Positions 2 through 26,034 of a stretch of DNA of 36,229 nt are shown here, piece by piece. The notes under the pieces are model-generated. The model saw only the letters and a program-made list of their open reading frames with translations, made no database searches and was not told where the DNA came from. Each line of letters starts with the position of its first letter. The stretch's first letter is position 1. The DNA is from an uncultured Candidatus Saccharibacteria bacterium (GTDB taxonomy: Bacteria > Patescibacteriota > Minisyncoccia > Sungbacterales > SURF-37), in the NCBI GenBank assembly GCA_964361655.1, contig CAYIBD010000002.1, positions 1 through 36,229 of the forward strand, written 5' to 3'. A program made the position numbers and the translations under genes.

Positions 2-1822
2 TGGATCGCCGAGAAGATCGGGCAACTCACGTATAAAACCCTGGACGTCGCGACTGACCTCGTTACCGTTCCCTTTGTAACCATCGCCGGCGGGATTTTC
101 TCTCTAGCGGTAACCCTGGCCCTGCTGCCGATCTGGAACACTACCTTCGTTCAACTCGGTTCAGCCATCACCCTCGGGGTGGCCAACATGTTCTTTGTCT
201 TGATTCTCCTCTGGATTGCGATTGCCACCATCTTTGACTTTGAGCCCTACACGGCCCGGCGGCTCCTCCTCCGGCTCATCATTGCCGCACTCTTGATCAA
301 CTTTAGCGTGGCCATCGGCAGCTCCTTCATCCGGCTTTCGAACGCGATGGCCGACATCTTCTATAAGCAGATTGGCGGTAGTGCCATCGGCATTGGAGGA
401 GAGTTCATCAAGCTCTCGAAGTTCGCGCCCGTCAAAGACGCCACGCCGGGCAACCCAAAGACCGGACACCCGCCGGGGGTGCTGGCCGGCCTCCTGGGCT
501 ACCTCGTGCCTCCCTCCGGCAAGGACTTCAGCTTCACCGCCGGACTCCAGGCCATCATCGGCAAACTCGCGATCACGCCGGTCTTGATCTTTGTTCTGCT
601 CGCCGGGGCCTTTTTTCTCCTCGTCCGCCAAATCGCGCTCGCCTTTGTCCTGGTGCTTGCGCCGCTTGCCTTCCTGTTCATGATCCTGCCCCACACCCAG
701 CGCTTCACCAACGACTGGTGGGGAGCGCTCACCAAGTGGGCCTTCTTCTTCCCGGCCTTCATGTTCTTCCTCTTCCTCTCGCTCAAAACCGGCGGCGGGC
801 TCTTAAGCGCCTACACCGGCAATCAACAAGACCCGGTCTTGCTCCTGTTCCAATATTTCCTTGTCATCGGCCTCATGCTGGGTTCGCTCATTGTCTCGCA
901 CCAGATGGGCGTGTACGGCTCAAGCGCCATCATCAACTGGGGCAAGCGCTCCGCGGCCGCGGCCGGACGGTGGGCCGGGAGCCGCCTCCTCCTCCAGGCC
1001 ACCGCGCCGATCGCCAAGCGCGTGGAGGAAAGCCAAAGCCGTGCGGCGCGAGCCCTCATGAAGGTACCCTTCGTTCGCCGCGGCCTCCAGAGCTACACCG
1101 CGCTCGAGCGCGAGGAGGCCAAGCGCGTGAAGAGTCAGCTCGAGAAGTTCTCGAGCAGTGAACTCCAGCGCCGCTCCCGCGGCTTCGGCGCCACCCAGGC
1201 CGACCGCATAGCCATCGCCGACATCCTCATGGAACGTCGCGACCTTGCGCCGGAAAAGACCCCGACCGGCCAGTGGAAGAATAACTGGACGCCCGACATG
1301 GTGAAAAACACCATCGCCTACCAGCGCTCGATCGGCCGCGACGTTATCGGGCTTGAGCGCGCTGTCCCACACCTGGCGAAAGACACCCGGGCAACGGTCG
1401 CCGGCATGCGGGCGGAACACATTGACCGCATGGATCCGGCCGCACTCGATAATGTCGAAGTCCTCAAGGCCATCGCGGAGAACTGGAAGAGTGGCCAGTA
1501 TAGCCGCATGATGAGCTTTAGCCCGGTGATGGTGAAGAAGTTCCAGACCGCGGTTGAAGGCCGCCACCCTGACCTCGCACCAGGTGAAGCGCAGGCGCTC
1601 GCCGAAGAAATGATCGCCGCAATCAGGCGTGATCCGGGGACCCGCCAGTATTTCCAGGCCAGCGCCGGCCAAGGCTTCGGCTACGCGGTGCCGGGTGTAA
1701 CCGGCGTAACCACCGAAGTCACCCCTCGCGTCCGGACACCGCCTAGTGCAGGTGGGGAGACGCAGGAGGAATTCGAGGCCCGCCAGCGGATGCGTCAGCA
1801 GCTCGGACGACAGCAGCCCTAA
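2..1822 (+). CDS. Polytopic membrane protein, VirB6/TrbL-like T4SS component (5' end cut by the window edge)
   Basis: The frame of the listed 179..1822 ORF stays open back to nt 2: 59 sense codons and no stop, hand-translated as WIAEKIGQLTYKTLDVATDLV... The gene therefore begins upstream of the window. There are several hydrophobic helices in the first ~250 aa, followed by a ~300-aa hydrophilic tail. It is the first gene of an operon with PrgI-like, VirB4 and T4SS-pilin genes. The family call rests on topology and context, not on a motif. Confidence 0.45.
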   Translation, partial: WIAEKIGQLTYKTLDVATDLVTVPFVTIAGGIFSLAVTLALLPIWNTTFVQLGSAITLGVANMFFVLILLWIAIATIFDFEPYTARRLLLRLIIAALLINFSVAIGSSFIRLSNAMADIFYKQIGGSAIGIGGEFIKLSKFAPVKDATPGNPKTGHPPGVLAGLLGYLVPPSGKDFSFTAGLQAIIGKLAITPVLIFVLLAGAFFLLVRQIALAFVLVLAPLAFLFMILPHTQRFTNDWWGALTKWAFFFPAFMFFLFLSLKTGGGLLSAYTGNQQDPVLLLFQYFLVIGLMLGSLIVSHQMGVYGSSAIINWGKRSAAAAGRWAGSRLLLQATAPIAKRVEESQSRAARALMKVPFVRRGLQSYTALEREEAKRVKSQLEKFSSSELQRRSRGFGATQADRIAIADILMERRDLAPEKTPTGQWKNNWTPDMVKNTIAYQRSIGRDVIGLERAVPHLAKDTRATVAGMRAEHIDRMDPAALDNVEVLKAIAENWKSGQYSRMMSFSPVMVKKFQTAVEGRHPDLAPGEAQALAEEMIAAIRRDPGTRQYFQASAGQGFGYAVPGVTGVTTEVTPRVRTPPSAGGETQEEFEARQRMRQQLGRQQP

Positions 1823-1843
1823 TCACCGCAAAGCGGACCGCCC

Positions 1844-2821
1844 ATGCCCATTCACCCCCCGCCGGAAAAACTCCGAGAAACATTCGAGCAATTCTCTCCC
1901 GAGCTCCGCGGAGCTATTGCGGGCGTTGAAACCGCTAGCGCCATTTTCACCATTGCCGAGGCACACGGGCTCAACCGCGAAGATCTCCCGAAGTTCGCCG
2001 CCGAAGTCGGTCATGTCATGGGCGGGGTAGACCCGGCGCGGGACTTCGTCGCCATACTTTCCGAAGTGCTCCGCCTCCCGCTGGATCGAGCGCGAAAAGT
2101 CGCCGCCGAAGTAAAAACCAAAATCCTGATGCCGATTGATTCGCTGCTCCGGCCTATCCACGGTGCAAATTGGGCGAATGCAATTCTTGCCGAGCCGCTG
2201 CCACTGCCGCCGCGGCCGGTGACACAGCCGCCCCCAGCCGCGCCGGTTATGGCACGGCCGCCCGCACCTCCTCCACCACCTCCTGTCCCGGCCTTCGCTC
2301 CTAAGCCGTCCCTGCCGCAGCCGCCCAAATCGGTCCCGCCTCCGCTGCCGAAGCCCGCCCCACCTCCGCCATCAGGTCTTTCAAGGACGCCGCAACCCCT
2401 GATCATCCACCCCCTGCCGCGCGAACCCGAAGGCGAGCCCCCAACGGGCTTTCGGCCACTGCCGCCGCAAGAGCCGCCGGTGGCTCCTCAACCACCATTG
2501 CCAGAGGCAGCACCAATCATTGGGTCACGCGGTCTCCAGCCGCCACCGCTACCGGCTCCACCGGCCACCGGACTACCCCCGCCGCTAGCGCCCGGTAGTA
2601 AGCCGTCTTTGCCCACGCCGCCATCGCCGCACGTCATTACCAAAGAAGCCCTCCGCAGGGAAAAACCGGAGAAGGCCCTGCCGCCCTCCGCACTGATGTC
2701 GCAGCCAAGCGCAAGCGGCCCGCCCGCAAACCTGCCCACCACTGAACCGCCCCACCCGCCTTCGGCTCCCAGTGAACCGGCGCAGCATACCGTTGACCCC
2801 TACCGCGAGCCGGTGGAATAG
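1844..2821 (+). CDS. Proline-rich protein of unknown function (globular ~110-aa N-domain plus ~215-aa Pro-rich tail)
   Basis: 325-aa ORF starting 21 nt after the previous stop. The N-terminal part looks helical (ETFEQFSPELRGAIAGVETASAIFTIAEAHGL...). The remainder is dominated by PPxP/PxPP runs. No signal peptide or TM helix is visible. The antisense and out-of-frame ORFs here are GC artefacts. Confidence 0.6.
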   Translation: MPIHPPPEKLRETFEQFSPELRGAIAGVETASAIFTIAEAHGLNREDLPKFAAEVGHVMGGVDPARDFVAILSEVLRLPLDRARKVAAEVKTKILMPIDSLLRPIHGANWANAILAEPLPLPPRPVTQPPPAAPVMARPPAPPPPPPVPAFAPKPSLPQPPKSVPPPLPKPAPPPPSGLSRTPQPLIIHPLPREPEGEPPTGFRPLPPQEPPVAPQPPLPEAAPIIGSRGLQPPPLPAPPATGLPPPLAPGSKPSLPTPPSPHVITKEALRREKPEKALPPSALMSQPSASGPPANLPTTEPPHPPSAPSEPAQHTVDPYREPVE

Positions 2822-2823
2822 CC

Positions 2824-3294
2824 ATGCAGCAATTCCAAGTCCCCCAATTCATCGACATCGAGGACCGCATCGTGGGGCCGCTGACCCTGAAACAGTTTTT
2901 GTATCTTTTGGGCGCGGCCGGCGTCACGCTCCTCGGCTGGTTCTGGCTGAACCTCGTGCTCTTCGCCATCATTACCGTTCCCCTGGCTGCCCTGTTCCTC
3001 GCCATGGCGTTCTTGAAGGTGAACGGCGTACCGTTCCCAACGGTCTTTGCCAACGCCCTCAACTACTATCTCAAGCCGCGGCTCTACCTCTGGCAACACG
3101 TCCGGGAAACGCCGCGGGCGCGCCCCGCCGCGCCTCCGGGAGAGCCAGTGCCTCGAGCCGGCGGCGAGCATCCGTCGGACGCCTCCACCCTCACCCCCTC
3201 GATCGCCCCGCCCAAACCCTCCGGAGGCAAGCTCTCCAACCTCGCCTGGGCTCTTGATGTCCGAGAGCAACTAGACCGCCGCGAGGGACGGTAG
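2824..3294 (+). CDS. PrgI-family (VirB3-like) small T4SS membrane protein
   Basis: It starts 2 nt after the previous stop. The N-terminus MQQFQVPQFIDIEDRIVGPLTLKQFLYLLG, followed by two hydrophobic helices, matches the PrgI family pattern. It sits just upstream of the VirB4 gene, separated only by one short VirB4-N-domain-like ORF, close to the VirB3/PrgI position in Gram-positive-type T4SS loci. Confidence 0.6.
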   Translation: MQQFQVPQFIDIEDRIVGPLTLKQFLYLLGAAGVTLLGWFWLNLVLFAIITVPLAALFLAMAFLKVNGVPFPTVFANALNYYLKPRLYLWQHVRETPRARPAAPPGEPVPRAGGEHPSDASTLTPSIAPPKPSGGKLSNLAWALDVREQLDRREGR

Positions 3295-3318
3295 CGCTCG
3301 GGCCGCACTCTCACTCTA

Positions 3319-3999
3319 ATGGCCTCTCCATCCGCTCCACTCGCCTCTCGAAAAGCCAAATCTGCGCTGGCTGCACAGGAGTTCTTAACCATTGAAGAAA
3401 TCCGCGAGGATGTCCTGGTCTTGAAAGGGGGGCTCGGCCTCCGGGCGGTGCTCATGGCCTCGGCCCTGAACTTTGCCCTCAAGTCCGAGTTGGAACAGGA
3501 AGCCCTGACCTTCCAGTATGAGAACTTTCTGAACGCCCTTGATTTCCCGCTCCAGATCGTTGTCCAGTCGCGGCACCTCGACATTCGGCCCTACCTCGAA
3601 ACCCTCACCGGCCGCCAGAAGGAGGAGACGAACGAGCTCCTGAAAATCCAGATTGGCGAATACATCGAGTTCATCCGGACGTTCGTGGAGCTGACCAAAA
3701 TCGTTTCCAAGACCTTCTTCGTTGTCGTGCCCTTCCAGCCCTCCATAGCCGAGCGCCACGCCGGCGGGTTCTTAAAAGGGTTCCTCCGCGGCGGCGGGGA
3801 AGCCCCGCTCCCGAACGGCGGCCAAGAATTCGCCCAATACAAAACCCAGCTCCTCCAGCGCGTCGATACCGTTACCCTCGGACTGCGGCGCCTGGGGCTC
3901 CGCTCGATGCAGCTTAAGAGCGATGAGCTCATCGAGCTCTTCTACGGCCTGTATAACCCGGCCGAATCGCAGGCCGTACGCATCGTTGGCGAGGGCTAA
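3319..3999 (+). CDS. Stand-alone VirB4 N-terminal-domain-like protein
   Basis: 226-aa ORF. The segment EDVLVLKGGLGLRAVLMASALNFALKSELEQEALTFQYENFLNALDFPLQIVVQS follows the pattern I recall from the N-terminal domain of Firmicutes-type VirB4 ATPases such as Tn916 Orf16. There is no Walker motif. It ends 3 nt before the full VirB4 gene. Confidence 0.4.
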   Translation: MASPSAPLASRKAKSALAAQEFLTIEEIREDVLVLKGGLGLRAVLMASALNFALKSELEQEALTFQYENFLNALDFPLQIVVQSRHLDIRPYLETLTGRQKEETNELLKIQIGEYIEFIRTFVELTKIVSKTFFVVVPFQPSIAERHAGGFLKGFLRGGGEAPLPNGGQEFAQYKTQLLQRVDTVTLGLRRLGLRSMQLKSDELIELFYGLYNPAESQAVRIVGEG

Positions 4000-4002
4000 C
4001 CC

Positions 4003-5853
4003 ATGGCCTTACTCCCGTTTTTCAAAAAGAAAGAGCCGGCCGAGCCGAAAATTTTCTCGGTCTTCCCGAGCGGAACGCCGCAGGCGGGGCGAACGACGCT
4101 CCGCGACATTGTGGCGCCGGCCGCCCTGGAGATCAGCCCGAGCTTCGTGCGCCTCGGCGAAAAGTTCGTCCGCACCCTCTTCGTCTTCTCCTACCCGCGC
4201 TACCTCCACACCAACTGGTTCTCGCCCATCATTAACCTCGATAAGGTGTTCGATATCTCGTTTTTCATCCACCCGGTGGACACCGCCCTCGTGCTCCGCC
4301 AGCTGCGAAAGCAGGTGACCCGGGTGCAATCACAAATTTCCATGCGCCAGGAAAAGGGCCTGGTCCGCGATCCGGTGCTGGATACCGCCTACCGCGACCT
4401 CGAAGATCTCCGCGACAAGCTGCAGCAGGCGCGGGAAAAGCTCTTCAACTTCGGGCTCTACCTCACGCTCTACGGCTCGTCGGCCGATGAGCTCGACAAG
4501 CTCGAGAACGAGGTCCGCTCGGTGCTCGAGGCGCGGCTGGTCTACGTCAAGCCGGCGTTGTTCCAGCAAGCCGAGGGCTTCAACGCCGCCCTGCCGCTGA
4601 ACACGGATGAACTCGCCATCCATAGCTACCTCCCCTCCGGCCCGATCTCAAGTGCCTTCCCGTTCGTCTCCTTCGACCTCACCTCCTCGAACGGCATCCT
4701 CTACGGTATCAACCGGCACAATAACTCCCTGATCCTGTTTGATCGCTGGTCGCTCGAAAACGCAAACTCGGTAACCTTCGCGGTGTCCGGTGCGGGCAAG
4801 AGCTATGCCGCCAAGCTCGAGGTCTTGCGCTCACTCATGGTCGGGGCGGACGTCATCATCATTGACCCCGAGCGCGAGTACGAGTACCTGGCCGAAACCG
4901 TCGGCGGGGCCTACTTCAACATCTCCCTCACCTCCCCAAACCACATCAACCCCTTTGACCTCCCCACCCCGCGCGAGGACGAGGCGCCCTCGGACGTGCT
5001 CCGCTCCAACATCATCAACCTGATCGGCTTTTTCCGAATCCTCCTGGGCGGGCTCTCGCCGGAGGAGGATTCGATCCTGGATCGCGCCATCACCGAGACC
5101 TACGCCAGCCGGGACATCACCCCGGAGGTGGATTTTGGCACGGCCGTGCCGCCGACCATCGCCGACCTCGCCCTCGTCCTCGCCAACACCGAAGGCGGGG
5201 GGAGCTTGGCGGCACGCCTCAAAAAGTACACCGAGGGCACCTGGGCCGGATTTCTGAACCAGCAGACCAACCTCGACATCAAGAATCGCCTCGTCGTCTT
5301 CTCGGTCCGGGACATGGAGGAGGAGCTGCGGCCGGTGGCCATGTACATCGTCCTCCACTACATCTGGAACATCGTCCGCACCGAGCTGAAGAAGCGCCTC
5401 TTGGTCGTGGACGAGGCCTGGTGGCTGATGCGCCACGAGGACGGGGCCTCCTTCCTCTACGGCATTGCCAAGCGCGCCCGGAAGTACTTCCTCGGGCTCT
5501 CGACCATCACCCAAGATGTCGCCGACTTCATGACCTCGCCCTACGGCAAGCCGATTGTTACCAACTCCTCCATGCAGCTCCTCCTGAAGCAGTCGCCCGC
5601 AACCATCAAGGCCGTGGTGGAAACCTTCAACCTCACCGATGAGGAAAAGTTTCTGCTGCTCGAATGCGAGGTGGGAGAGGGAATTTTTTTCGCCGGCTTG
5701 AAGCACGTGGCCATCAAGGTCATCGCCTCCTACACCGAAGACCAAGTGATCACCTCGGATCCGGCCCAGCTCCTGCTGATCAAGAAAGCCAAAGAGGAAT
5801 TCGCAACCGCCCACCAGGGTGAGCGGAAAGACGCCCTGTCTCCTATGCCATGA
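4003..5853 (+). CDS. virB4: VirB4-family T4SS ATPase (TrsE/PrgJ-like)
   Basis: 616 aa. Walker A is FAVSGAGKSYAAK and Walker B is LLVVDEAWWLM. It has its own VirB4-type N-domain (VRTLFVFSYPRYLHTNWFSPIINL) and a C-terminal ITQDVADF motif region typical of the family. Confidence 0.88.
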   Translation: MALLPFFKKKEPAEPKIFSVFPSGTPQAGRTTLRDIVAPAALEISPSFVRLGEKFVRTLFVFSYPRYLHTNWFSPIINLDKVFDISFFIHPVDTALVLRQLRKQVTRVQSQISMRQEKGLVRDPVLDTAYRDLEDLRDKLQQAREKLFNFGLYLTLYGSSADELDKLENEVRSVLEARLVYVKPALFQQAEGFNAALPLNTDELAIHSYLPSGPISSAFPFVSFDLTSSNGILYGINRHNNSLILFDRWSLENANSVTFAVSGAGKSYAAKLEVLRSLMVGADVIIIDPEREYEYLAETVGGAYFNISLTSPNHINPFDLPTPREDEAPSDVLRSNIINLIGFFRILLGGLSPEEDSILDRAITETYASRDITPEVDFGTAVPPTIADLALVLANTEGGGSLAARLKKYTEGTWAGFLNQQTNLDIKNRLVVFSVRDMEEELRPVAMYIVLHYIWNIVRTELKKRLLVVDEAWWLMRHEDGASFLYGIAKRARKYFLGLSTITQDVADFMTSPYGKPIVTNSSMQLLLKQSPATIKAVVETFNLTDEEKFLLLECEVGEGIFFAGLKHVAIKVIASYTEDQVITSDPAQLLLIKKAKEEFATAHQGERKDALSPMP

Positions 5854-6536
5854 ACGGAAAGCGACTGACATCCGGAGGTGAGGGGGGCGATGCCTACGAG
5901 GAGCTTGCCCTCGAAGGCCTGCCGCCGACGGCCGCCGCACCGGAGGAACACTTCCGCATCCGCCTGAACTGGGTTCGGCGCCTGCCGCACTCGATCGACG
6001 AGGCGGTTATGGGCGCGGCCGAGGCGCTCGCCAACAAGCTCAACCGCGAAATTGAAATGGGGCACGATGTCATGGCCTTTACCATCGCCCTCCTCCTGGC
6101 GGCCGCCATGGACGGCCTTGATTGGGGTGTTACCCTACTTGCTGGACTCGTGGGTTTAATCCCGCTCATTGGTCAGGCGCTCGCCGCAGCCCTCCTCGCG
6201 GGCGGGCCCTATGTCAAGCTCTTCCTGTGGGCCTTTCTCACGTACTTCCTGTGGAGCAAGGGCTGGCTCCTGAAGTGGCGAGTGCGGTTGGGGCTCCGCA
6301 TCGGGTTATGGCTCCTGTCGTTCATCTTTGAGAACATCCCGGGGATCAATCTTTTGCCCTTGAATGTCATCACGGTCCTCTGGGCGTGGCGCAACGTCCG
6401 CCACGCCGCGGCCGAAGCCGAAGAGGACATGCGGAAGCTCGAGCGCGATCTTGAAGACCTGGCCGAAGAAGCGGCAGAGACCGAAGAGTCGGCGCCGATG
6501 CCGGAGGTTGCCCCCGCGCCCGCGGCCCAATCATGA
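5850..6536 (+). CDS. Integral membrane protein of unknown function (about 4 TM helices, acidic C-terminus)
   Basis: The ATGA start/stop overlap with virB4 at 5850..5853 implies translational coupling. Hydrophobic helices run from about aa 75 to 180. The tail is Glu-rich (EEDMRKLERDLEDLAEEAAETEE). Confidence 0.6.
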   Translation: MNGKRLTSGGEGGDAYEELALEGLPPTAAAPEEHFRIRLNWVRRLPHSIDEAVMGAAEALANKLNREIEMGHDVMAFTIALLLAAAMDGLDWGVTLLAGLVGLIPLIGQALAAALLAGGPYVKLFLWAFLTYFLWSKGWLLKWRVRLGLRIGLWLLSFIFENIPGINLLPLNVITVLWAWRNVRHAAAEAEEDMRKLERDLEDLAEEAAETEESAPMPEVAPAPAAQS

Positions 6537-7504
6537 ACCGAGGATTATCGCGTCTCCGTTCCCGTCTACTCGCTGCCGCCTTTTTTGCCGCGGCAGTAAC
6601 GGCGCTCCCCGCCGGATCACAGCCATCGCTCTTCACCCTCCGCACCTCCGCGCTTAACCCTGACCCCGGCACGGCCATTGAGCTTGAGGTGGTGAGCTCG
6701 GCCTTTGACCGCGCTGCCGCATCGTATCAGTGGTCAGTAAACGGGATCCCGGATTCGGGCCGGAGCGGCACGGGGAGGTACCAGGTCACGATCCCCGCCG
6801 GTGGCGATGGCGAGACGAAAAAAATCGCGGTCGCGGTGGCGACGACAACGGGCGGCCGAACCCAGCAAGCGTCCGTTACCGTACAGGCGGTGAGCGCGCC
6901 CCTGTACTGGTGGGCGGACACGGCCGTGCCGTATTGGTATAAGGGCAAGGCCCTCCCAACGCTCCATACCACGGTGACCGCCACGGCTCTCCCCAATATT
7001 CCGAATGCGGCGGCCTTAAACTACCGTTGGGAGTTCAACGGTGCCCTGATCCCGAGTAACTCGGGCGTCGGGAAAATGAGTGCCTCCTTCACGCTTGACT
7101 TCCCGGTGGAGGAACGGATCCGCGTCACCATGGAGCAGCTCCAGGGTTCGTTTAAGAAAGCGGCGGCCACGACCGCCAAGCCGCTGGCGCCGGCGGTCGC
7201 CATCTACGAGCTCCGGCCGCTCCGCGGCATCGTGTTCGAGCGCGCGCTCTCGACCTTCAGGGCGCTTGACGGAGAATCGTATGATTTCACCGCGCACTCA
7301 TTTTACCTTGGGACCAAACCGCAGGCCCTCTCCTACCGCTGGACCCTGAACAACCGGGAAATCGAGGGCGTGAGCGGAAAACCGTGGATCGTGAGCTTTA
7401 CCCCGAGCATTGCCGCCTCGAGCACAAACCAGCTTGCCGTAGAGGTTACGGATCCGGGAACGCCATTGGGCCGCGCCACCGCCGCCATTCGCATCGACCG
7501 CTAG
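6533..7504 (+). CDS. Secreted protein with three tandem ~100-aa beta-rich repeats
   Basis: ATGA overlap with the upstream gene. The N-terminus is signal-peptide-like (MNRGLSRLRSRLLAAAFFAAAVTALPAGSQ). A Y[QR]W-x-[VFL]N motif recurs at roughly 300-nt spacing: YQWSVNG near 6722, YRWEFNG near 7022, YRWTLNN near 7334. Confidence 0.6.
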   Translation: MNRGLSRLRSRLLAAAFFAAAVTALPAGSQPSLFTLRTSALNPDPGTAIELEVVSSAFDRAAASYQWSVNGIPDSGRSGTGRYQVTIPAGGDGETKKIAVAVATTTGGRTQQASVTVQAVSAPLYWWADTAVPYWYKGKALPTLHTTVTATALPNIPNAAALNYRWEFNGALIPSNSGVGKMSASFTLDFPVEERIRVTMEQLQGSFKKAAATTAKPLAPAVAIYELRPLRGIVFERALSTFRALDGESYDFTAHSFYLGTKPQALSYRWTLNNREIEGVSGKPWIVSFTPSIAASSTNQLAVEVTDPGTPLGRATAAIRIDR

Positions 7505-7514
7505 CTACCAGCGC

Positions 7515-7898
7515 ATGACCTCCCGCGCTCTCAATACCCTTCGGAGCACCGCCGGCCTCCTCCCCTGGCTTCTCGGGCCAGCGGTTACTTCGGCCACCAG
7601 CCACCAGCCGAACGCCTCCCAGTATCTCTCCGAACTTTACCTCTGGTTCCTGGGGTTCGTTGGCATTGCGGCACTCTTTGGCATTGTAACCGGCGGGGTG
7701 CTCTATATGTTCTCCGACAGCTTGACGGACACCAAGCATGCCAAGGACTGGATCTGGAACTCTATCGGCGGGATTGTGCTCGCCGCGTTCTCCTATCTCC
7801 TCCTCTATACCATCAGCCCGGACCTGGTGCAGGGGTTTGATATCCAAAAGATTATTACCAACGCCTGCCTAAAGCTCCCCACTCCTATTAGCTGCTAA
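7515..7898 (+). CDS. T4SS-type pilin (TrbC/VirB2-like; CPR T4SS_pilin family pattern)
   Basis: 127 aa with a signal-like N-terminus and then two hydrophobic helices flanking a short polar loop. The sequence FLGFVGIAALFGIVTGGVLYMFSD...HAKDWIWNSIGGIVLAAFSYLLLYTISPDLV matches the G-G-x-x-Y...AK...G-x-x-x-A pattern of the T4SS pilin family. Confidence 0.6.
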   Translation: MTSRALNTLRSTAGLLPWLLGPAVTSATSHQPNASQYLSELYLWFLGFVGIAALFGIVTGGVLYMFSDSLTDTKHAKDWIWNSIGGIVLAAFSYLLLYTISPDLVQGFDIQKIITNACLKLPTPISC

Positions 7899-7903
7899 CC
7901 GCT

Positions 7904-9076
7904 ATGAACCGGGTTGGGATCCTCATCTTCGGCGCGCTTGGCCTCCTGCTCCTCGGGGCTGGCGTCATTACCTACCTCACCCTCCGCGCCCCACCGCCGC
8001 CGCCTCCGCCGCCCGCACCCCCGCCTTCAGAGCTCCCCATCATCGGCGACCAGACCCCCACGGCTCCGCCCGGAGCAGGGACGCCGCCAACGCCCATCGC
8101 AGCGCTGCCCGGCGCGGAGCGCCCGTTGATCCAGGCCATTGATAAAGACATTGTCGGCCCAACGCTCGGCCGCGATAAACAATCCCTGTTCTACGCCCTC
8201 CGTGAGAACGGCCACCTCATGCAAGCTGACCTTGAGGGCCGGAATGAAACAACGCTCACGAACCTTACCGTGCCCGAGGTCTTTGACGTGGCCTGGTCGC
8301 CGTTAAAAACGCGGGCGGTGCTGGTGTACCACGAGGCCGGCGTGGTGAAAAAATTCCTCCAGCAGACCGCAACCACCTCGCCCTCGCGCTTCCTGCCTCA
8401 GGCACTGACGTCGCTTGCCTGGTCGCCCGACGGCCGGCAGATGGCCTACCTCCTGCCCCAAGGAGGAAAGTCAGCGCTCGTCATCGCGGACCAAAACGGA
8501 AAGAACGTGCGAACGGTGTATCAAACGCCGATCCCGGATTTCACGGTTCAATGGGTTTCGGCCAACACCATCCTCCTCGTCTCGCGGCCCTCCGGTCTTG
8601 CGCCAAGCTTAGTCCTCCGCTTTGACCTGAAGGCCAGAAGAACCACCACACTCCTTTCTAACATCGCCGGGGCCGTCCTCCTCGGGGCGCCTGACGGCAC
8701 CGGCGTTGTCTACTCGGCTTCAGGCCGAGGCGGCCGGCCAGAGCCGCTCCGGCTCCACACCCTCAAAGGTGCCACGACCGCTACCCTGCCGGTTACCACC
8801 GTCGCGGAGAAATGCGCGTTTTCCCCTGACTCGAAGCGCCTCTATTGCGGCGTGCCCAGAGCCACGATCCGGGCCGTGACGCCCGATGAGTGGTATCGGG
8901 GCGCGCTCTCATTCGTAGACGCCATCGTGAAAATTGATCTGGCCTCGGGCCGCGCCGAAATTATTGGCCGCGGCATTCCGGCGCTCGACGTTATCTCGCC
9001 CTTCCTCTCGGCTGATGAGAAGTTCTTCTTCTTCCAGGACAAAAAGACCGGGACAGTGTGGCGCGTTCAACTCTAG
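7904..9076 (+). CDS. Membrane-anchored TolB-like (PD40/WD40-like) beta-propeller protein with a polyproline spacer
   Basis: There is an N-terminal TM helix (ILIFGALGLLLLGAGVITYL) followed by PPPPPPPPAPPP. PD40-like repeats follow (WSPLKTRAVLVY, WSPDGRQMAYL, FSPDSKRLYCG). It is the last gene of the operon. Confidence 0.6.
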   Translation: MNRVGILIFGALGLLLLGAGVITYLTLRAPPPPPPPPAPPPSELPIIGDQTPTAPPGAGTPPTPIAALPGAERPLIQAIDKDIVGPTLGRDKQSLFYALRENGHLMQADLEGRNETTLTNLTVPEVFDVAWSPLKTRAVLVYHEAGVVKKFLQQTATTSPSRFLPQALTSLAWSPDGRQMAYLLPQGGKSALVIADQNGKNVRTVYQTPIPDFTVQWVSANTILLVSRPSGLAPSLVLRFDLKARRTTTLLSNIAGAVLLGAPDGTGVVYSASGRGGRPEPLRLHTLKGATTATLPVTTVAEKCAFSPDSKRLYCGVPRATIRAVTPDEWYRGALSFVDAIVKIDLASGRAEIIGRGIPALDVISPFLSADEKFFFFQDKKTGTVWRVQL

Positions 9077-9292: not shown

Positions 9293-10588
9293 TCACCCGA
9301 CCTCGACGCGAAACTCCATCCGCACCCACTCCGCGTAGGCGCGGTCGCGGACGAACCGCTCCACGTCGCCGTTGAAGAGGATCACGAGCTCGAGCGGGAC
9401 ACTCGACTCGTTCCTCAACGCCATGGCGTCGCGCCCGCACTTCCACCCAACCGGCTCATGGTAGTGCCCCGGCTGGACGAGTAAGAGCGCAATGGCGTAC
9501 GGCCGGATACCGAGGAGGGGCGCCTTCAGGTTTTTCTCGGGCTCGGCACCGCAGACGCCGATCGGCCGGCCCTCCTTGTCGTAGGCGAGCGCTCCCGAGT
9601 CGTAGTGGACGCGCGCTGTCGCACCCGGCGGAACCATGATGGTGGTGCGGTGTCCGATGGCCTCTTGGTTCTTTCCGTTCGTGCCATCGATGGACACCCC
9701 CCAGGCGCTTGGCCCTATCGGCACTACGCGGGTTGCTCGCATGCGGCGGGCTTCGATCTCACGCTCGCGCTCCGAGGGACGCGGTGGAGCGACATATCGC
9801 GGTGGGGGAGGCGCGGCCTCGGCCCGCGGCATAACCGCAGGCGGCGGTGGCAGCGGTCTCTCTTTCCACACCGCCTCGTCGAGCAAAAGCGCTCCAATGA
9901 TGATGAGCGCCCCCACCCAAGCGAAGGTCAGGAACCTCGTCCGCCTGAAAATCCAGGCGAGCAGCACGGCGACCACAAGCCCGAACGTGGTCAGCCAGAA
10001 GAGCTCGCGGTTGCCGAGTTCAAGCGTGCCGCGCAGCCACTTGCCGACGCTACCGAGGATCCCGGCCTCTTCGCCGTTCTCCTGGAACGCGAGGCACTTC
10101 TCGCGGAACTCGGCGTCGCGTCGAATTTGCGCCGCGAGCTCCTTATGCCTTTGCTCGAAGACCTCGCGCGAGATGCCACGCGCCTGGAGGAGCCGCTCGA
10201 GCTCAGATGCGATGGCATCGGTCTTTCCCGCTTCCGTACGCTCGAAGGTGTCGCAGAGCCGCCGGAGCACGAGGTACTCCGGCAACCCATGGACTCGTCC
10301 CCGCTCTGCACCGACGATGTCGGTCCACACCGTCCGTTGATGCGTGGCCTGGCGGATACGAGGGAACCGTTCGAGCACGCCGTTCCACAGGGTCGGTAGG
10401 CCGATGAAAAGCACCACCCACCCGATAAAGATGACCGTCGCGAACCGCCGGTACGCCGGCAGGAGCTGGACCAACGCGATGGCGCCGCCGAGGGCCAGGA
10501 TCGCGAGCCCGACCCAGACGCTGCCGATTAGCCCGGCGAAACGGAGAAAGAAAACAATCGGAATCGCCCACAACCAATTCCAGTTCAT
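9293..10588 (-). CDS. Multi-pass membrane protein with a cytoplasmic helical region, a Pro-rich linker and a C-terminal beta-rich (lectin/PA-IL-like?) domain; unknown function
   Basis: 431 aa. The ATG at 10588 is preceded by GGAGGAGG and lies 3 nt after the upstream stop. TM helices lie at about aa 1-75 and 196-245. A PLPPPPAVMPRAEAAPPPPRYVAPPRP linker follows, then a ~150-aa beta-rich C-domain ending ...LELVILFNGDVERF..WVRMEFRVEVG. The fold guess is weak. Confidence 0.65.
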   Translation of the reverse strand: MNWNWLWAIPIVFFLRFAGLIGSVWVGLAILALGGAIALVQLLPAYRRFATVIFIGWVVLFIGLPTLWNGVLERFPRIRQATHQRTVWTDIVGAERGRVHGLPEYLVLRRLCDTFERTEAGKTDAIASELERLLQARGISREVFEQRHKELAAQIRRDAEFREKCLAFQENGEEAGILGSVGKWLRGTLELGNRELFWLTTFGLVVAVLLAWIFRRTRFLTFAWVGALIIIGALLLDEAVWKERPLPPPPAVMPRAEAAPPPPRYVAPPRPSEREREIEARRMRATRVVPIGPSAWGVSIDGTNGKNQEAIGHRTTIMVPPGATARVHYDSGALAYDKEGRPIGVCGAEPEKNLKAPLLGIRPYAIALLLVQPGHYHEPVGWKCGRDAMALRNESSVPLELVILFNGDVERFVRDRAYAEWVRMEFRVEVG

Positions 10589-10591
10589 GGC

Positions 10592-11149
10592 CTACCTCCT
10601 CCCTCGATGGGTGATCAGGTTTGCAATTGTGGCGCCCAGGATCTCCCGGAGCGTCACCCAGAACTGTCCAAACAACCCATGGACTATCTCGCCCGCGCCT
10701 GCCGCAGTTCTTCCCGTTGCGGGCGTAGCGGGCGGTGCGCCGCCAGTTGCCGGACTGCCGCGTCGTTCACGGACCCATCGCACTCCTGCTCGCCAGGCGC
10801 GACCGAATTCGTCGAACCGGCTAACGGGAATGTAGATGACGCTCACGACGAACAACACCCCCCATACAGCCCACGACCACCAACGGAGCTGCGCCCAGAG
10901 CGACCCCGCCGCTTCCCAAAACCACCACGGCGGATTGAGCTCGCGGTCAGTGGCGAACCGGCCGCGGAACTCGAGGTTGTTGTAGCGCTGGACTTCCTCC
11001 GCGATAGGGAAGAAATCCGTGGCCGGCCCAAACCCGAAGAAGGTCAGGTTTAACAGGAGGAGGGCCAGGACGAACACCCAGAGCGCCTTGAGACGGAAGT
11101 TGTTGTCGTTCCCGAGACGGTATCCGAAACGCCACAGAAAGTCAGCCAT
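10592..11149 (-). CDS. Trp-rich two-TM membrane protein, unknown function
   Basis: I moved the start from the listed 11191 to the ATG at 11149 (MADFLWRF...). This ATG sits 1 nt after the upstream TAG (11151..11153) and 5 nt after GGAGGAG. The C-terminal tail is EIVHGLFGQFWVTLREILGATIANLITHRGRR. Confidence 0.6.
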   Translation of the reverse strand: MADFLWRFGYRLGNDNNFRLKALWVFVLALLLLNLTFFGFGPATDFFPIAEEVQRYNNLEFRGRFATDRELNPPWWFWEAAGSLWAQLRWWSWAVWGVLFVVSVIYIPVSRFDEFGRAWRAGVRWVRERRGSPATGGAPPATPATGRTAAGAGEIVHGLFGQFWVTLREILGATIANLITHRGRR

Positions 11150-11150
11150 G

Positions 11151-11858
11151 CTATCTCCTCCGATCTCCCACCCCTTGCATGATGCTAGCAAGGAGCGTCC
11201 GGAACAGGCCGTGAACCGCAGGGGGCCTTACAGGAACCGTTGCCGCCGGACGTCTGAACTTCGAGGGGCCCTGGAGATTCTTAATTTCCTGTTCGAACCC
11301 GGGAACCTGAATCGTCACGTCAGCCTCGGGCTCGGTGAAAACGAGAGGCAACGACACGAAGCCGCTGGCATCCGTCACCTTATCAGTGACGTCCGCGCCC
11401 GGGCGACCAAGCCGCGAGACAAGGAACCGGACCGGAATGCCGCCTGCGGGTCTGCCCGCCCTGCGGGCGAGTGACCCGGAGATGGTGAACTCCCCCTCAT
11501 CGCCGCCGGCGTGGAAATTTGGCTGCAGAAGTTCCAGAATCGCCCGCTCAAAGGTATGGCGGTAGGTCACAGGGAGCCCACCGAGCTGGACCGAGATCAC
11601 GTGCGTCCCGAAGCCGAGACCAGCGTACGTGTAGGATACGCGGCCGTGGTCATCAGTCGGGTGCGCATGCATCTCGTCCGCCCCCAGCCAAAAGGTGATC
11701 GTCTCGCCGCGGATGGGATCCTGCGGCCGTCCCCGCTCGTCCTGCGTCAGAATCGCGGTGGCTAGGATGCTGCCACCGGTTTCGCTCGGCTGCGGGGTCG
11801 GCTCAAACGTGAGCCGCACGCGGCCAAGCCCAGCAATGATGGCGCTCGCTTGTGGCAT
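11151..11858 (-). CDS. Protein with two Ig-like (Big_1/invasin-like) beta-sandwich repeats, no signal peptide; unknown function
   Basis: 235 aa with AGGAGGAAACCACC-ATG at 11858. Two segments follow the usual bacterial Ig-like pattern: ATAILTQDERGRPQDPIRGETITFWLG...TDDHGRVSYTYA and FTISGSLARRAGRPAGGIPVRFLVS...TDASGFVSLPLVF. The C-terminal tail is AVHGLFRTLLASIMQGVGDRRR. Confidence 0.6.
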   Translation of the reverse strand: MPQASAIIAGLGRVRLTFEPTPQPSETGGSILATAILTQDERGRPQDPIRGETITFWLGADEMHAHPTDDHGRVSYTYAGLGFGTHVISVQLGGLPVTYRHTFERAILELLQPNFHAGGDEGEFTISGSLARRAGRPAGGIPVRFLVSRLGRPGADVTDKVTDASGFVSLPLVFTEPEADVTIQVPGFEQEIKNLQGPSKFRRPAATVPVRPPAVHGLFRTLLASIMQGVGDRRR

Positions 11859-12073: not shown

Positions 12074-12541
12074 TTACGGGTAGGGCTTGATGACCACTCT
12101 CCGCGACTCGCCCTCACCCACGGACTGGGTGATGATATCCGGGTACTCGGCGAGCGCCATATGGATGATGCGGCGCTCAAAGGGCGACATGGGCTTCAGG
12201 GCAAGCTCGGTGCGGTAGAGGCGCACCTTCCGGGCGATGTTCTTGGCCTCGGCCTTCAGTTCCTCAATGCGGTGGAGGCGGTAGCCGTTCACGTCTAAAA
12301 AGAAGCCGGTAGCCACCTCCGGACTCGCTTTCTCCAGCAGCCGCCGCAAGAGGTATTCGAGCGCCATGAGGTTCCGGGCGCGCGCGCCGATCAAAAGCCG
12401 CGCCTCGTCGGTGATGATGTTGACGTAGGGGATGGAGAGGTCGGGGATGGTTCGCTCTTCGACATCGGCGCTGACACCCATCTTCTCAAGCGTCGCGTTG
12501 ATGTGCTCGCAGATCACGCTCATGCTTGATGCGTCGCTCAA
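12074..12541 (-). CDS. jag: Jag/KhpB-like RNA-binding protein (KH + R3H domains)
   Basis: The KH-like segment is LLIGARARNLMALEYLL. The R3H-like segment is LKPMSPFERRIIHMALAEYPDIITQSVGEGESRRVVIKP. The position downstream of yidC is classical. The start is uncertain: 12541 overlaps yidC by 56 nt, and 12523 is an alternative. Confidence 0.8.
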   Translation of the reverse strand: MSDASSMSVICEHINATLEKMGVSADVEERTIPDLSIPYVNIITDEARLLIGARARNLMALEYLLRRLLEKASPEVATGFFLDVNGYRLHRIEELKAEAKNIARKVRLYRTELALKPMSPFERRIIHMALAEYPDIITQSVGEGESRRVVIKPYP

Positions 12542-13232
12542 TCCAGCGCTGCTCGACTATAGCAAAAATACTGAAGGCCGTCCAGTAGAGCGCCAAGGCC
12601 GATGGCAGCGACCAGGAAATGACCGCGATGAAGAACGGGAAGAAGTACGTCATCTGCAACCGGAGCGCGCGGTTGAATTCAGCTCCCATGCCCGGCTCGG
12701 TCGAGCCGGGCGGGGTCGCGAACTTCCCTTGGAAGAACTGCGCTACACCGGCAGCGAGCGCCAGCACCACGCTCCGGCCGGTGAGATCGAAGAGGCCAAA
12801 AGCCACGGGGTTGAACGCCGCAATGTGTGGCACGAAGGAGTAGAAGAGCGCCGGATCCTGGAGCGTGATGCCCTTCCAGAAGACACGGTAGAGTCCAATC
12901 AAGGCCGGCAGTTGAATTAAGAGGGGCAAGCAGCCCGAAAGCGGGTGCACGCCCTCCTCGCGGTAGAGCGCCATGGTCCGCCGCGCCTGCTCTTCACGAT
13001 TGCCCTTAAACCGTTCCTGAATCTCGCGGAGTTTTGGCTGGACCCGGCCCATGGCCTGCTGCGAACGGATGGCCTGGACCATTGCCGGGTGGAGGAGGAG
13101 ACGCACGAGCGCGGTCATCCCCACAATCGCAAGCCCAAGGTCGGCGAGAGGAAGTGCGACGTATATCAACACCAGGCCGTTCAAGAGCGGCCGGTAGATC
13201 ACTTCGGTAAAGAGCGATGCGAGGAAGCTCAC
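12486..13232 (-). CDS. yidC: Membrane protein insertase YidC (short, Oxa1-like form)
   Basis: Core motifs of the family are present (QPKLREIQERFK, MALYREEGVHPLSGCLPLLIQLP, SALALYWTAFSIFAIVEQ). I trimmed the start to the GTG at 13232, which overlaps the yidD TGA as GTGA. The longer listed ORF (to 13439) would run through yidD. Confidence 0.88.
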   Translation of the reverse strand: MSFLASLFTEVIYRPLLNGLVLIYVALPLADLGLAIVGMTALVRLLLHPAMVQAIRSQQAMGRVQPKLREIQERFKGNREEQARRTMALYREEGVHPLSGCLPLLIQLPALIGLYRVFWKGITLQDPALFYSFVPHIAAFNPVAFGLFDLTGRSVVLALAAGVAQFFQGKFATPPGSTEPGMGAEFNRALRLQMTYFFPFFIAVISWSLPSALALYWTAFSIFAIVEQRWIERRIKHERDLRAHQRDA

Positions 13233-13456
13233 GGTACGGGATCGTAGCCGCCGCGAGCCCAGGGGTGACAGCGGCTGAGGCGCAAAAAGAGGAACATAAA
13301 ACCGCGGGCGAGTCCATATTGACGGATCGCACTCAGTCCATACGCTGAGCAGGTAGGAACGTAGCGGCACCCGCCGGGGAGAAGGGGGAGACGGTGAATG
13401 AGCGGCGACAAGAACAAGCGGTAGGCGTAGAAGAAACAATAGGCCCCGCGCTTCAT
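13229..13456 (-). CDS. yidD: Membrane protein insertion efficiency factor YidD
   Basis: MKRGAYCFFYAYRLFLSPLIHRLPLLPGGCRYVPTCSAYGLSAIRQYGLARGFMFLFLRLSRCHPWARGGYDPVP is the typical YidD pattern (C-R-[FY]-x-P-[TS]-CS-x-Y ... RC-x-P). ATGA overlap with the rnpA stop at 13453..13456. Confidence 0.88.
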   Translation of the reverse strand: MKRGAYCFFYAYRLFLSPLIHRLPLLPGGCRYVPTCSAYGLSAIRQYGLARGFMFLFLRLSRCHPWARGGYDPVP

Positions 13457-13803
13457 GGTTGAAATCGGAGGAGGATTCGTTGCATGGCGTCCGCCCGCTC
13501 CCGGAGGACAGGGCGGGCGAGACGCGCCGTATCCGGTCTCACGAAGACCACGAGGTGATAGTGCCGCCGGAGGGGGAGCGTATGCTCCCGCGCCCACGCT
13601 TCAAGGTGCCGGCGGATGCGGTTACGCTCGCTCGATTTCTTTGAAACAGCGGCCGGCACAGAAAACAGGACCCGCCCGGATTGTCCCGGATGTACCGGTA
13701 TAACCGCGACCCGGCCCAGGGGAGTGTGGTAGCGGCGGCCGTTGCGGATCACCGCGCTAACATCCTGCCGGCTGGCAAAACGCATATGCGTTGGTAGCGC
13801 CAT
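13453..13803 (-). CDS. rnpA: Ribonuclease P protein component
   Basis: 116 aa, basic. It contains the KKSSERNRIRRHLEAW (RNR-motif) region and sits directly downstream of rpmH. Confidence 0.9.
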   Translation of the reverse strand: MALPTHMRFASRQDVSAVIRNGRRYHTPLGRVAVIPVHPGQSGRVLFSVPAAVSKKSSERNRIRRHLEAWAREHTLPLRRHYHLVVFVRPDTARLARPVLRERADAMQRILLRFQP

Positions 13804-15601: not shown

Positions 15602-15795
15602 TACTTGCGGATAGGTACTGGAGAAACAACAACATAGTGTAGTACGCTTAAAAAAAGTTTTCAACCACCCCCATCCCACTAACAGTTTTTAGAATTGTTA
15701 TCTTTACATCAAATCTTAAAAACAAACCATTTTTATTACCGTAATCGCACTCATCCACACCTTTTTATCCCAACAACAATAACAAGTAGTTATGT
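15602..15795. other. Candidate oriC / DNA-unwinding region (AT-rich dnaA-dnaN spacer)
   Basis: This ~190-nt spacer is strikingly AT-rich in a GC-rich genome (CTTAAAAAAAGTTTTC, AAATCTTAAAAACAAACCATTTTTATTACC). DnaA-box-like sites are TCATCCACA (15751..15759) and TTATCCCAA (15765..15773). Confidence 0.5.
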
Positions 15796-16890
15796 ATGAA
15801 GATTACGTGCGCCACCGAACATTTCAAAACAGCGGTTCTCATCGTTGAACGATTCACTAGTAGGCACGTCACCCTTCCAATTTTGTCGCACATCCTCCTT
15901 ACCGTAAAAGAAAAAAAAATTTCTCTCATTGCCACAAATTTAGAAGTGGGGATTGAGTATCCAATCCTGGGTAAGGTTCAAAAGCTCGGGGCAGTTACCG
16001 TGCCCGCGCGTCTTATTACCCAAGTCCTCCAATCCATTACCGAAGAGGCGCTAACCCTTGAAGCGCACCAGCGGCAACTTATTCTCCATACCCCCACCAG
16101 CGATGCCACCATCCTCGGCTTGGATACTAGCGACTTCCCAACCCTACCCACTATTACTACCGAGTACTCCTTTACCGTACCAGCCGAGGCATTCCTTACC
16201 GCACTCCACCAGGTCCTCCCCGCGGTAGCCACCACTGATCTCAAGCCCCAGCTTGCCGGCGTGTTTATAGCCGCCAGCGGTGACACCGTAACACTTGTTG
16301 CCACCGACTCGTTCCGGCTCGCCGAGAAGACGATACCGTCAAGCGCCGGACCGGAGGCGGCAATGGAATGTGTCGTGCCAAGCCGCACCATGCAAGAACT
16401 TAGCCGAACCATCCCGTCGAGCGGCGAGGTCGTGGTACGCATTGGCGAACACCAGGCACTCTTTGAATGGGATGGCGCCCGTATCCTCTCGCGCCTGGTT
16501 GACAGCGCCTACCCGCCGTATAAGAACCTCATCCCCAAGGCCTTCGAGACGACGGTGGCCATCGAACGCGATGACTTTTTACGGAAAATCCACCTCGCCG
16601 CAGTGTTTTCGAGCCGCCTCAACGATATCACCCTCGCGGTTTCGCCATCGGAGGTAGCCATCAGCGCAACAAACCCCGAGGCCGGGGACACGACTTCGCG
16701 TCTGCCCGCCAAGGGGCGGGGCAGTGCGGGGAGTGTGGTGTTCAACCACCGCTACCTCACCGACGGTCTCGAGGCCGCGGGCGGCGGGGAGGTGGTCCTC
16801 CGGTTGAATGGTGTGGCCGGTCCGGCGCTGATCCAAAATCAAACCGACCCATCATTCCTCTACCTCCTGATGCCGATCCGCGCGGTCTAG
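15796..16890 (+). CDS. dnaN: DNA polymerase III beta sliding clamp
   Basis: 364 aa. The N-terminus MKITCATEHFKTAVLIVERF...LPILSHILL and the C-terminus ...YLLMPIRAV are typical of DnaN, and the gene lies directly after dnaA. Confidence 0.95.
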   Translation: MKITCATEHFKTAVLIVERFTSRHVTLPILSHILLTVKEKKISLIATNLEVGIEYPILGKVQKLGAVTVPARLITQVLQSITEEALTLEAHQRQLILHTPTSDATILGLDTSDFPTLPTITTEYSFTVPAEAFLTALHQVLPAVATTDLKPQLAGVFIAASGDTVTLVATDSFRLAEKTIPSSAGPEAAMECVVPSRTMQELSRTIPSSGEVVVRIGEHQALFEWDGARILSRLVDSAYPPYKNLIPKAFETTVAIERDDFLRKIHLAAVFSSRLNDITLAVSPSEVAISATNPEAGDTTSRLPAKGRGSAGSVVFNHRYLTDGLEAAGGGEVVLRLNGVAGPALIQNQTDPSFLYLLMPIRAV

Positions 16891-26030: not shown

Positions 26031-26034
26031 GGCT

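Follow-up and report, generated by a model that had tools for sequence, protein, structure and literature searches.

Type IV secretion systems (T4SSs) of the Patescibacteria are listed as newcomers to the T4SS superfamily in a 2025 FEMS review. A survey of 3,035 genomes assigned 2,425 VirB4 proteins to a Patescibacteria clade nested in the mating-pair formation (MPF) class MPF-FATA (Quinonero-Coronel et al. 2025, Microb Genom, PMC12102498). In that survey TrsD is the commonest partner of virB4; PrgI/VirB3, VirB6 and VirB2-like pilins are encoded nearby; relaxases are almost absent; and homologues of the type IV coupling protein (T4CP) are mostly encoded far from virB4. The T4SS locus of Paceibacteria and Microgenomatia lies near dnaA, dnaN, rnpA, ksgA and rpmH (PMC12102498). 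In S. epibionticum (Southlakia), the cluster SEML1_0006-0019 is essential by transposon sequencing (Tn-seq); the system most resembles the conjugative T4SSs found in Gram-positive organisms, although it has pilins and lacks any recognisable coupling or relaxase protein (Wang et al. 2023, Cell, PMC10633639). The tables of that study give the order VirB6...PrgI, a hypothetical protein in the position of TrsD, and VirB4. The results presented here concern a window of 36,229 nucleotides (contig CAYIBD010000002.1, positions 1 to 36,229) from an uncultured bacterium, which carries an operon of this kind at positions 2-9076. It is very probable that this operon is the known Patescibacteria-clade T4SS, derived from MPF-FATA and no longer part of a mobile element. 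The window holds an ordinary Sungbacteria-like copy of the published locus and no new kind of system.

The correspondence extends to gene content, gene order and site. Like the published locus, the window encodes a short VirB4 (~610 aa), an adjacent stand-alone TrsD, PrgI/VirB3 and VirB6 nearby, and a VirB2-like pilin, and it has the order VirB6...PrgI-TrsD-VirB4. No relaxase or coupling protein is encoded near virB4, and the operon lies beside dnaA, dnaN, rnpA and ksgA, the upstream side being read from relatives only. VirB4 was placed in the Patescibacteria clade by the identity and length of its homologues, by the restriction of the related loci to Patescibacteria and by its score with the CD1110 family, rather than by a tree. 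Nothing essential differs. The window has a single pilin gene, not an array of six, and is without a VirB1-like hydrolase or an NTF2/VirB8-like gene. It also encodes an immunoglobulin-like (Ig) repeat protein, a TolB-like propeller and a proline-rich protein ending in a DPYRE peptide, which are not discussed in the main text of PMC12102498. That main text contains no mention of the propeller, the Ig-like protein or a head-on orientation of the operon. A sequence-only reading of the window had proposed a non-conjugative, chromosomally fixed surface machine powered by VirB4. This interpretation is supported by the fixed site between ksgA and dnaA and by the absence of mobility families from the commonest ones upstream of the operon in relatives, but it is already published, including the lack of a relaxase, the stand-alone TrsD, the pilin and the proximity to dnaA.

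Nine + strand open reading frames (ORFs) are packed at 2-9076 in one direction, in the order of Table 1 from VirB6 to the TolB-like propeller and with the coordinates of the sequence-only reading. The spacings between successive ORFs are 21, 2, 24, 3, -4, -4, 10 and 5 nt, and both -4 overlaps are ATGA, in agreement with the gaps of 2-24 nt or ATGA overlaps that had been described. The operon had been called a nine-gene one. Nine ORFs are indeed present in the window, but the operon of relatives begins two genes farther upstream, so the window carries 9 of about 11 operon genes. Pfam scores were judged against the gathering cut-off (GA) and NCBIfam scores against the curated cut-off; the VirB6, PrgI and VirB4 assignments of the sequence-only reading all score above them (Table 1). 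A scan of the window with Rfam found no RNA families, and promoter and terminator scans gave matches at chance level only.

The ATPase of the operon is encoded by two genes. The 4003-5853 product aligns with positions 185-733 of the 752 positions of the CD1110-family VirB4 profile. The Walker A (SGAGKS) and Walker B (VVDEAW) motifs were located at aa 262-267 (nt 4786-4803) and aa 468-473 (nt 5404-5421). The nearest solved structure is the C-domain of Thermoanaerobacter VirB4 (PDB 4ag5, E 9e-46), and the Gram-negative TrwK matches at E 9e-6. A weak, partial match to the NCBIfam CedB model (E 1.6e-8) reflects the common ATPase fold. The 3319-3999 product matches VirB4 models in their N-terminal part only (VirB4_plasma positions 110-232, E 6.8e-5). 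It also matches TrsD (E 0.0064) and has a precomputed assignment to the TraC-like family PF26593; a PDB sequence search with it gave no match. The TrsD-like gene is present in all of the 82 related loci that were compared with the window proteins by tblastn, and its family comprises 1973 representative clusters. A natural fusion occurs in another Patescibacterium: in a 797-aa protein (P0242), residues 5-212 correspond to the window's TrsD-like protein, and the segment 225-796 shares 58% identity with the window VirB4. The TrsD-like and ATPase genes together therefore correspond to one canonical VirB4, and the stand-alone VirB4 N-domain proposed by the sequence-only reading is upheld.

The split between TrsD and VirB4 is not a recent event. 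The nearest relatives of the window VirB4, from Parcubacteria and Sungbacteria, are 73-85% identical and all ~600-620 aa long, indicating that the split is ancestral. The best 120 homologues are 73-100% identical and ~590-630 aa long, and the named ones are from Sungbacteria, Giovannonibacteria or Parcubacteria. In the window, a TAA-CCC-ATG junction (nt 3997-4005) places the TrsD-like gene and virB4, 3 nt apart, in one frame. The shared frame is incidental, because the two genes are in different frames in a related locus, L003. Read-through of the in-frame TAA, or a pseudogene, was considered and ruled out, since the genes are split in 82/82 loci and the frames differ in L003.

The operon is fixed in both order and site. 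The sequence-only reading had suggested a comparison of synteny, and matched operon genes in the 82 loci invariably share the strand of virB4 and keep their order. Orthologues of VirB6 occupy the same position in 63 of these loci and orthologues of PrgI are found in 79. When each species was represented by a single genome, a scan gave 80 loci, every one of them in a metagenome-assembled genome of Patescibacteria, including Sungbacteria, Giovannonibacteria, Kaiserbacteria, Niyogibacteria, Nomurabacteria and Taylorbacteria. Judging from these homologues, the window comes from a Candidatus Sungbacteria-like groundwater bacterium within the candidate phyla radiation (CPR), class Paceibacteria, an affiliation that the sequence-only reading had missed. 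Downstream of the operon, relatives have jag(-), yidC(-), dnaA(+), dnaN(+) and the penicillin-binding protein gene PBP1(-). Among loci with sufficient flanking sequence, dnaA is found downstream in 48/51 (at least 8 kb available) and ksgA upstream in 46/55 (at least 9 kb available); both are seen in 33 loci, 14-20 kb apart. VirB4 is 84% identical to relatives, compared with 33-64% for its neighbours. The GC content and third-codon GC content (GC3) of the operon are indistinguishable from those of the flanks.

The upstream part of the operon was reconstructed from relatives. The window begins inside virB6, and its VirB6-like product lacks roughly 80-100 aa of the 5' end compared with the 809-aa L003 orthologue. 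Where upstream sequence is available in the closest relatives (two loci, VirB4 84-85% identical), virB6 is preceded by genes for a transmembrane (TM)-anchored TSP3-repeat protein and a secreted protein of ~300 aa, and ksgA and uvrD/pcrA lie farther upstream. KsgA, UvrD, TSP3 repeats, peptidoglycan-binding (PG-binding) and Ig-like domains predominate in a Pfam census of 131 ORFs from the 6.5 kb upstream in about 30 related loci; coupling-protein, relaxase and integrase families are all missing from its 25 commonest. For this genome itself, the upstream flank was sought by an exact 40-nt scan of metagenome contigs and a protein look-up with the 1844-2821 product, which found none. An independent ENA contig from Hainich groundwater (Hain_H51, 22,580 nt) stops at the same base as window nt 1. 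This shared end suggests that assembly fails in the N-terminal part of virB6 because of a repeat, heterogeneity among strains or a break in coverage.

Table 1. Features of the T4SS operon and of the dnaA region in the window. TM, transmembrane; GA, gathering cut-off; AF2, AlphaFold2.
Feature	Position (nt)	Strand	Evidence or remark
VirB6/TrbL-like polytopic membrane protein	2..1822	+	Pfam TrbL 31.2 bits (GA 25.9)
Pro-rich protein, 27% Pro	1844..2821	+	Composition; without TM segment or signal peptide
PrgI/VirB3-like small membrane protein	2824..3294	+	Pfam PrgI 41.9 bits (GA 27)
TrsD-like protein, stand-alone VirB4 N-terminal domain homologue	3319..3999	+	NCBIfam, PF26593
VirB4 ATPase, C-terminal two-thirds of canonical VirB4, 616 aa	4003..5853	+	NCBIfam CD1110-family, 346 bits (cut-off 325)
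Small polytopic membrane protein, ~4 TM segments, acidic tails	5850..6536	+	Topology; position
Secreted protein, three tandem Ig-like beta-sandwich domains	6533..7504	+	AF2 pLDDT 87.6, pTM 0.74
VirB2-like T4SS pilin, two hydrophobic helices and short polar loop	7515..7898	+	Pfam T4SS_pilin PF18895
TM-anchored TolB-like beta-propeller	7904..9076	+	TIGR02800 TolB E 7e-8
jag	12074-12523	-	Pfam
yidC	12486-13232	-	Pfam
rnpA	13453-13803	-	Pfam
dnaA	14060-15601	+	Pfam; 5 kb downstream of operon
dnaA-dnaN spacer, AT-rich	15602-15795		GC 0.335, 194 nt
dnaN	15796-16890	+	Pfam

The membrane and accessory proteins of the operon differ in how well they can be followed among relatives. The VirB6-like product has six TM-like segments and a hydrophilic C-terminal extension of ~300 aa. 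The Pro-rich protein encoded by the next gene has no Pfam or NCBIfam match. Its N-terminal domain (~aa 1-115) is all-alpha and is joined by a long Pro-rich spacer to the C-terminal peptide DPYREPVE (nt 2795-2818). The AlphaFold2 (AF2) model of the N-terminal domain (pLDDT 82.9) has no fold match in PDB, the best Foldseek E-value being 1.9. A homologue search with this protein was swamped by low-complexity words and returned 7 matches. A DP[YF][RKL]E motif at most 14 residues from the C-terminus is encoded by the gene between virB6 and prgI in 57/82 loci. The remainder of the tailed protein (150-600 aa) can hardly be aligned among the loci, which leaves the C-terminal peptide as its one strongly conserved element, and its Pro-rich spacer varies in length. 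The conserved DPYRE(P) C-terminus may be a docking or recognition peptide, and the protein could be a ruler, a tether or a secreted substrate that docks on the VirB4/TrsD ATPase.

Small genes of the PDDEXK_3 and 23S_rRNA_IVP (four-helix-bundle) families interrupt the operon around prgI in close relatives (8465-8845 in L002; 8085-8339 and 8894-9265 in L003) and are absent from the window. In appearance they are selfish or accessory genes that have inserted into an otherwise fixed operon.

The small polytopic membrane protein that follows VirB4 matches no Pfam or NCBIfam family. It is weakly similar to the product of the L003 gene at the same position (E 4e-5), with which it has an IPxINxLP motif in common, and it diverges fast. 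In 30 of the 51 loci tabulated, the interval from virB4 to the Ig-repeat gene contains a + strand ORF of 130-250 aa. The secreted protein with a triple repeat, noticed by the sequence-only reading, has three Ig-like domains in its AF2 model, with a YxWxxN motif at aa 65, 164 and 268. Foldseek matches of the model are multi-Ig proteins, namely phage Hoc (3shs, 3.7e-9), NCAM, Sidekick and SiiE, and the protein thus resembles adhesion proteins with multiple Ig domains; a PDB sequence search gave a chance antibody match only. A VirB8-like NTF2 fold, as in VirB8, TcpC and PrgL, was considered for this protein and ruled out, since it consists of all-beta Ig sandwiches with multi-Ig Foldseek matches only. 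The Ig-repeat protein is found in 72/82 loci, where relatives mostly have four domains (~430 aa).

The pilin has the topology of a two-helix hairpin and a conserved (I/V)NPDLV motif. Among 15 pilin orthologues identified by position, 14 match PF18895 (best 8e-10) and two match TrbC/VirB2. The top PDB match of the pilin profile is Agrobacterium VirB2, which at E 0.22 is not significant. The last protein of the operon has an N-terminal TM anchor, a poly-Pro stalk (aa ~29-70) and a TolB-like beta-propeller. The propeller call of the sequence-only reading is confirmed by the TIGR02800 match (Table 1) and by a profile of 44 orthologues, which matches TolB structures in PDB with E 2e-11. Residues K303, C304, C315 and D339 are invariant, and the invariant cysteine pair is consistent with an extracytoplasmic propeller. 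Orthologues are found in 63/82 loci. From the loci compared, conservation of the Ig-repeat, propeller and DPYRE-tailed proteins as members of the operon appears to run across Paceibacteria. It is tentatively suggested, with more doubt than confidence, that the Paceibacteria T4SS carries a class-wide and undescribed extracellular or tethering module, in which Ig-repeat, propeller, TSP3-repeat and DPYRE-tailed proteins would replace VirB8, VirB1 and adhesin functions.

Outside the Patescibacteria, the closest described systems are the monoderm MPF-FATA systems, represented by the CD1110-type VirB4 of CTn2, TrsD of pGO1 and PrgI/PrgH/PrgJ of pCF10. CD1110 is the best curated family for the window VirB4, TrsD-like and PrgI-like partners are present, and no genes for an outer-membrane core (VirB7/9/10) were detected. 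Unlike these systems, the window operon lacks a T4CP (PcfC/TcpA), a relaxase, an oriT and an integrase, is not on a mobile element, and possesses a VirB2-like pilin, a component missing from Gram-positive systems. Neither a hydrolase of the PrgK/TrsG type nor a VirB8-like protein of the PrgL/TraM type was detected in the window. Like Helicobacter pylori ComB and archaeal Ced, the system is chromosomal, non-conjugative, driven by VirB4 and without a coupling protein or relaxase. ComB and Ced import nucleic acid, whereas import by the Patescibacteria T4SS is a proposal. ComB is a diderm MPF-T system with VirB7-10, and the membrane and pilin proteins of Ced are unrelated; homology to these two systems is limited to VirB4, VirB2, VirB3 and VirB6. 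Bordetella Ptl and Brucella VirB also operate without a VirD4 homologue. Unlike the window system, both belong to the diderm MPF-T type, have complete VirB7-11 sets and export known protein substrates, and they are phylogenetically distant from it (TrwK, the MPF-T VirB4, E 9e-6).

Gene content, homology, synteny and the lack of mobility genes nearby are observed here; assembly of a T4SS, formation of a pilus, the nature of the substrate and the direction of transport are all inferred from homology. The TrsD-like N-domain protein and the 616-aa ATPase would dock on PrgI/VirB3 and VirB6 to form a translocon in the cytoplasmic membrane. The translocon would pull the VirB2-like pilin from the membrane and polymerise it into a tube or pilus. 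The Ig-repeat protein and the stalked propeller, together with the TSP3-repeat protein and the second secreted protein encoded upstream in relatives, may form or decorate a part that spans the wall and contacts the host. Such a machine most likely serves the obligate host-dependent lifestyle, not conjugation. By analogy with ComB and Ced, it may be a conduit for the acquisition of host macromolecules such as nucleic acids; this possibility is favoured, albeit tentatively and at somewhat less than even chances, because no coupling protein or relaxase is linked to the operon and the nearest analogues without a T4CP are importers. A 2024 PNAS perspective mentions nucleotide acquisition and effector delivery, with H. 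pylori ComB as a precedent. For a cultivated relative, a 2026 preprint describes tubular structures where the cell meets its host, and the uptake of RNA from that host (bioRxiv 10.64898/2026.06.21.733656).

Several points weigh against a non-mobile T4SS that acquires host material. The same PNAS perspective calls the role of the Patescibacteria T4SS 'completely unknown'. Essentiality was shown in Southlakia only (PMC10633639). The window showed neither a VirB8-like nor a VirB1-like component, and the pilin itself matches T4SS_pilin (E 7e-6) with 26.4 bits, 0.2 below the GA of 26.6, but the orthologue matches given above argue for the pilin call. Both the window and the ENA contig end at nt 1, so that the absence of mobility genes upstream is read from relatives only. 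Most Patescibacteria genomes carry VirD4-like genes elsewhere (PMC12102498), which lends some probability to export. The absence of a coupling protein thus applies to the locus only.

The sequence-only reading had named a VirD4 gene, relaxase, oriT and integrase immediately upstream as features of an ordinary integrative and conjugative element (ICE). That the operon is such an element or its remnant, with these genes just beyond window nt 1, is extremely improbable, even though the upstream sequence of this genome is unseen and a minority of Patescibacteria carry relaxases (PMC12102498). In relatives the operon is bounded by ksgA/uvrD on one side and by jag-yidC-rnpA-dnaA on the other, and the census of upstream ORFs shows no T4CP, relaxase or integrase among its commonest families. 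Downstream, over the remaining 27 kb of the window, profile matches likewise reveal no gene for VirD4 or another coupling ATPase, a relaxase, VirB11 or an integrase and no plasmid gene, as the sequence-only reading had stated. An ICE is also at odds with the lack of any compositional anomaly, the class-wide conservation of order and orientation, and a VirB4 far more conserved than its neighbours. The conserved synteny and the lack of mobility families upstream in relatives indicate that the operon is not an ICE, as far as relatives allow, and conjugation as a function is very unlikely.

Among the non-conjugative functions, it is rather unlikely that the same machine exports effectors or toxins into or onto the host, with a coupling protein encoded elsewhere or with none. 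Wang et al. (2023) suggest that the system 'may instead export proteins' (PMC10633639), speculation about effector delivery is noted in the PNAS perspective mentioned above, VirD4-like genes are common elsewhere in Patescibacteria (PMC12102498), and Bordetella Ptl and Brucella VirB are known exporters without a T4CP. However, neither in this window nor in relatives does the operon or its surroundings encode a candidate effector or T4CP, and the unlinked t4cp of S. epibionticum is not essential whereas its T4SS genes are (PMC12102498). An organelle for adhesion only, in which a VirB2-type pilus carrying the Ig-repeat and propeller proteins on its surface would attach the cell to its host without transfer of a substrate, is less probable still. 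It would account for a pilin gene and three or four surface-protein genes conserved in the operon and for the absence of a coupling protein and relaxase downstream in the window and upstream in relatives. It does not fit well with a VirB4 ATPase that is so strongly conserved, and attachment of Saccharibacteria has been attributed to type IV pili, for which a pilB gene is also present in the window. Acquisition of host macromolecules remains the preferred function.

The operon is transcribed toward a putative origin of replication. The sequence-only reading had placed it in a core chromosomal flank with dnaA about 5 kb away, and jag, yidC, rnpA, dnaA (14060) and dnaN were all identified (Table 1). 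The 27 kb downstream of the operon is core chromosome, with a class A penicillin-binding protein (PBP1), tyrS, yebC, ruvB, pilB, tsaE, polA, holA and uvrB beyond dnaN. The GC content of dnaA and dnaN is 0.55-0.58, compared with ~0.62-0.65 in neighbouring genes and ~0.62 for the window overall. The AT-rich spacer between dnaA and dnaN is a plausible DNA-unwinding element of oriC. Seven matches to the DnaA box with one mismatch were found where 3.2 are expected; this enrichment is not convincing, as 3 of 100 shuffles reach seven.

Raw GC skew was considered as a marker of the origin and dropped. For most genes in the window, the coding strand has a strongly negative third-codon GC skew (C > G in the sense strand), so raw GC skew tracks the direction of transcription and would mislead a naive origin call. 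A change of sign appears only on decomposition of GC3 skew by strand and side of dnaA (29 genes). Left of dnaA, the skew is -0.16 for + strand genes and +0.04 for - strand genes; right of dnaA, the values are -0.08 and +0.25. The replication component is about 0.06-0.085 and its sign flips around dnaA. This flip supports an origin there and hence an operon that is head-on to replication, as the sequence-only reading had proposed; the gene context and the AT-rich spacer agree, the sample being small and the origin putative. The orientation of the operon toward dnaA is invariant, with dnaA co-oriented with virB4 in 48/48 loci. An invariant head-on orientation of an important operon fits awkwardly with the published 'gene-dosage' rationale.

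Three - strand ORFs (431, 185-199 and 235 aa) lie at 9293-11858, between the propeller gene and jag. One product has four TM segments and a Pro-rich stretch, another has two TM segments, and the third is weakly similar to Ig-like (Big_1) domains. They were considered as parts of the T4SS and ruled out, as homologues are absent from the 82 related loci and from the L003 genes at the same position. In L003 the same spot holds three other, unrelated - strand genes and an SLT lytic transglycosylase. From this comparison, the interval between the propeller gene and jag is apparently a variable 'slot' beside a very stable operon, and the insert of the window appears to be specific to its lineage. 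Farther downstream, at 24366-27207 (-), the window encodes an ATPase of the PilB/GspE type, as in type IV pili and type II secretion systems (T2SSE E 2e-115) that contains an MshEN domain; the ORF after it, of 390 aa, matches no family. The genome therefore encodes a type IV pilus ATPase besides the T4SS.

Beyond the published description of the Patescibacteria T4SS, the results add the class-wide conservation of the Ig-repeat and propeller proteins, the DPYRE peptide, a natural fusion of TrsD and VirB4, and the invariant orientation of the operon toward dnaA. These additions are modest by-products of the comparison. The T4SS itself occurs in nearly all members of a radiation to which a quarter of bacterial diversity may belong. 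In the only species tested it is essential, and it is a leading candidate for the extraction of host material by these parasites.

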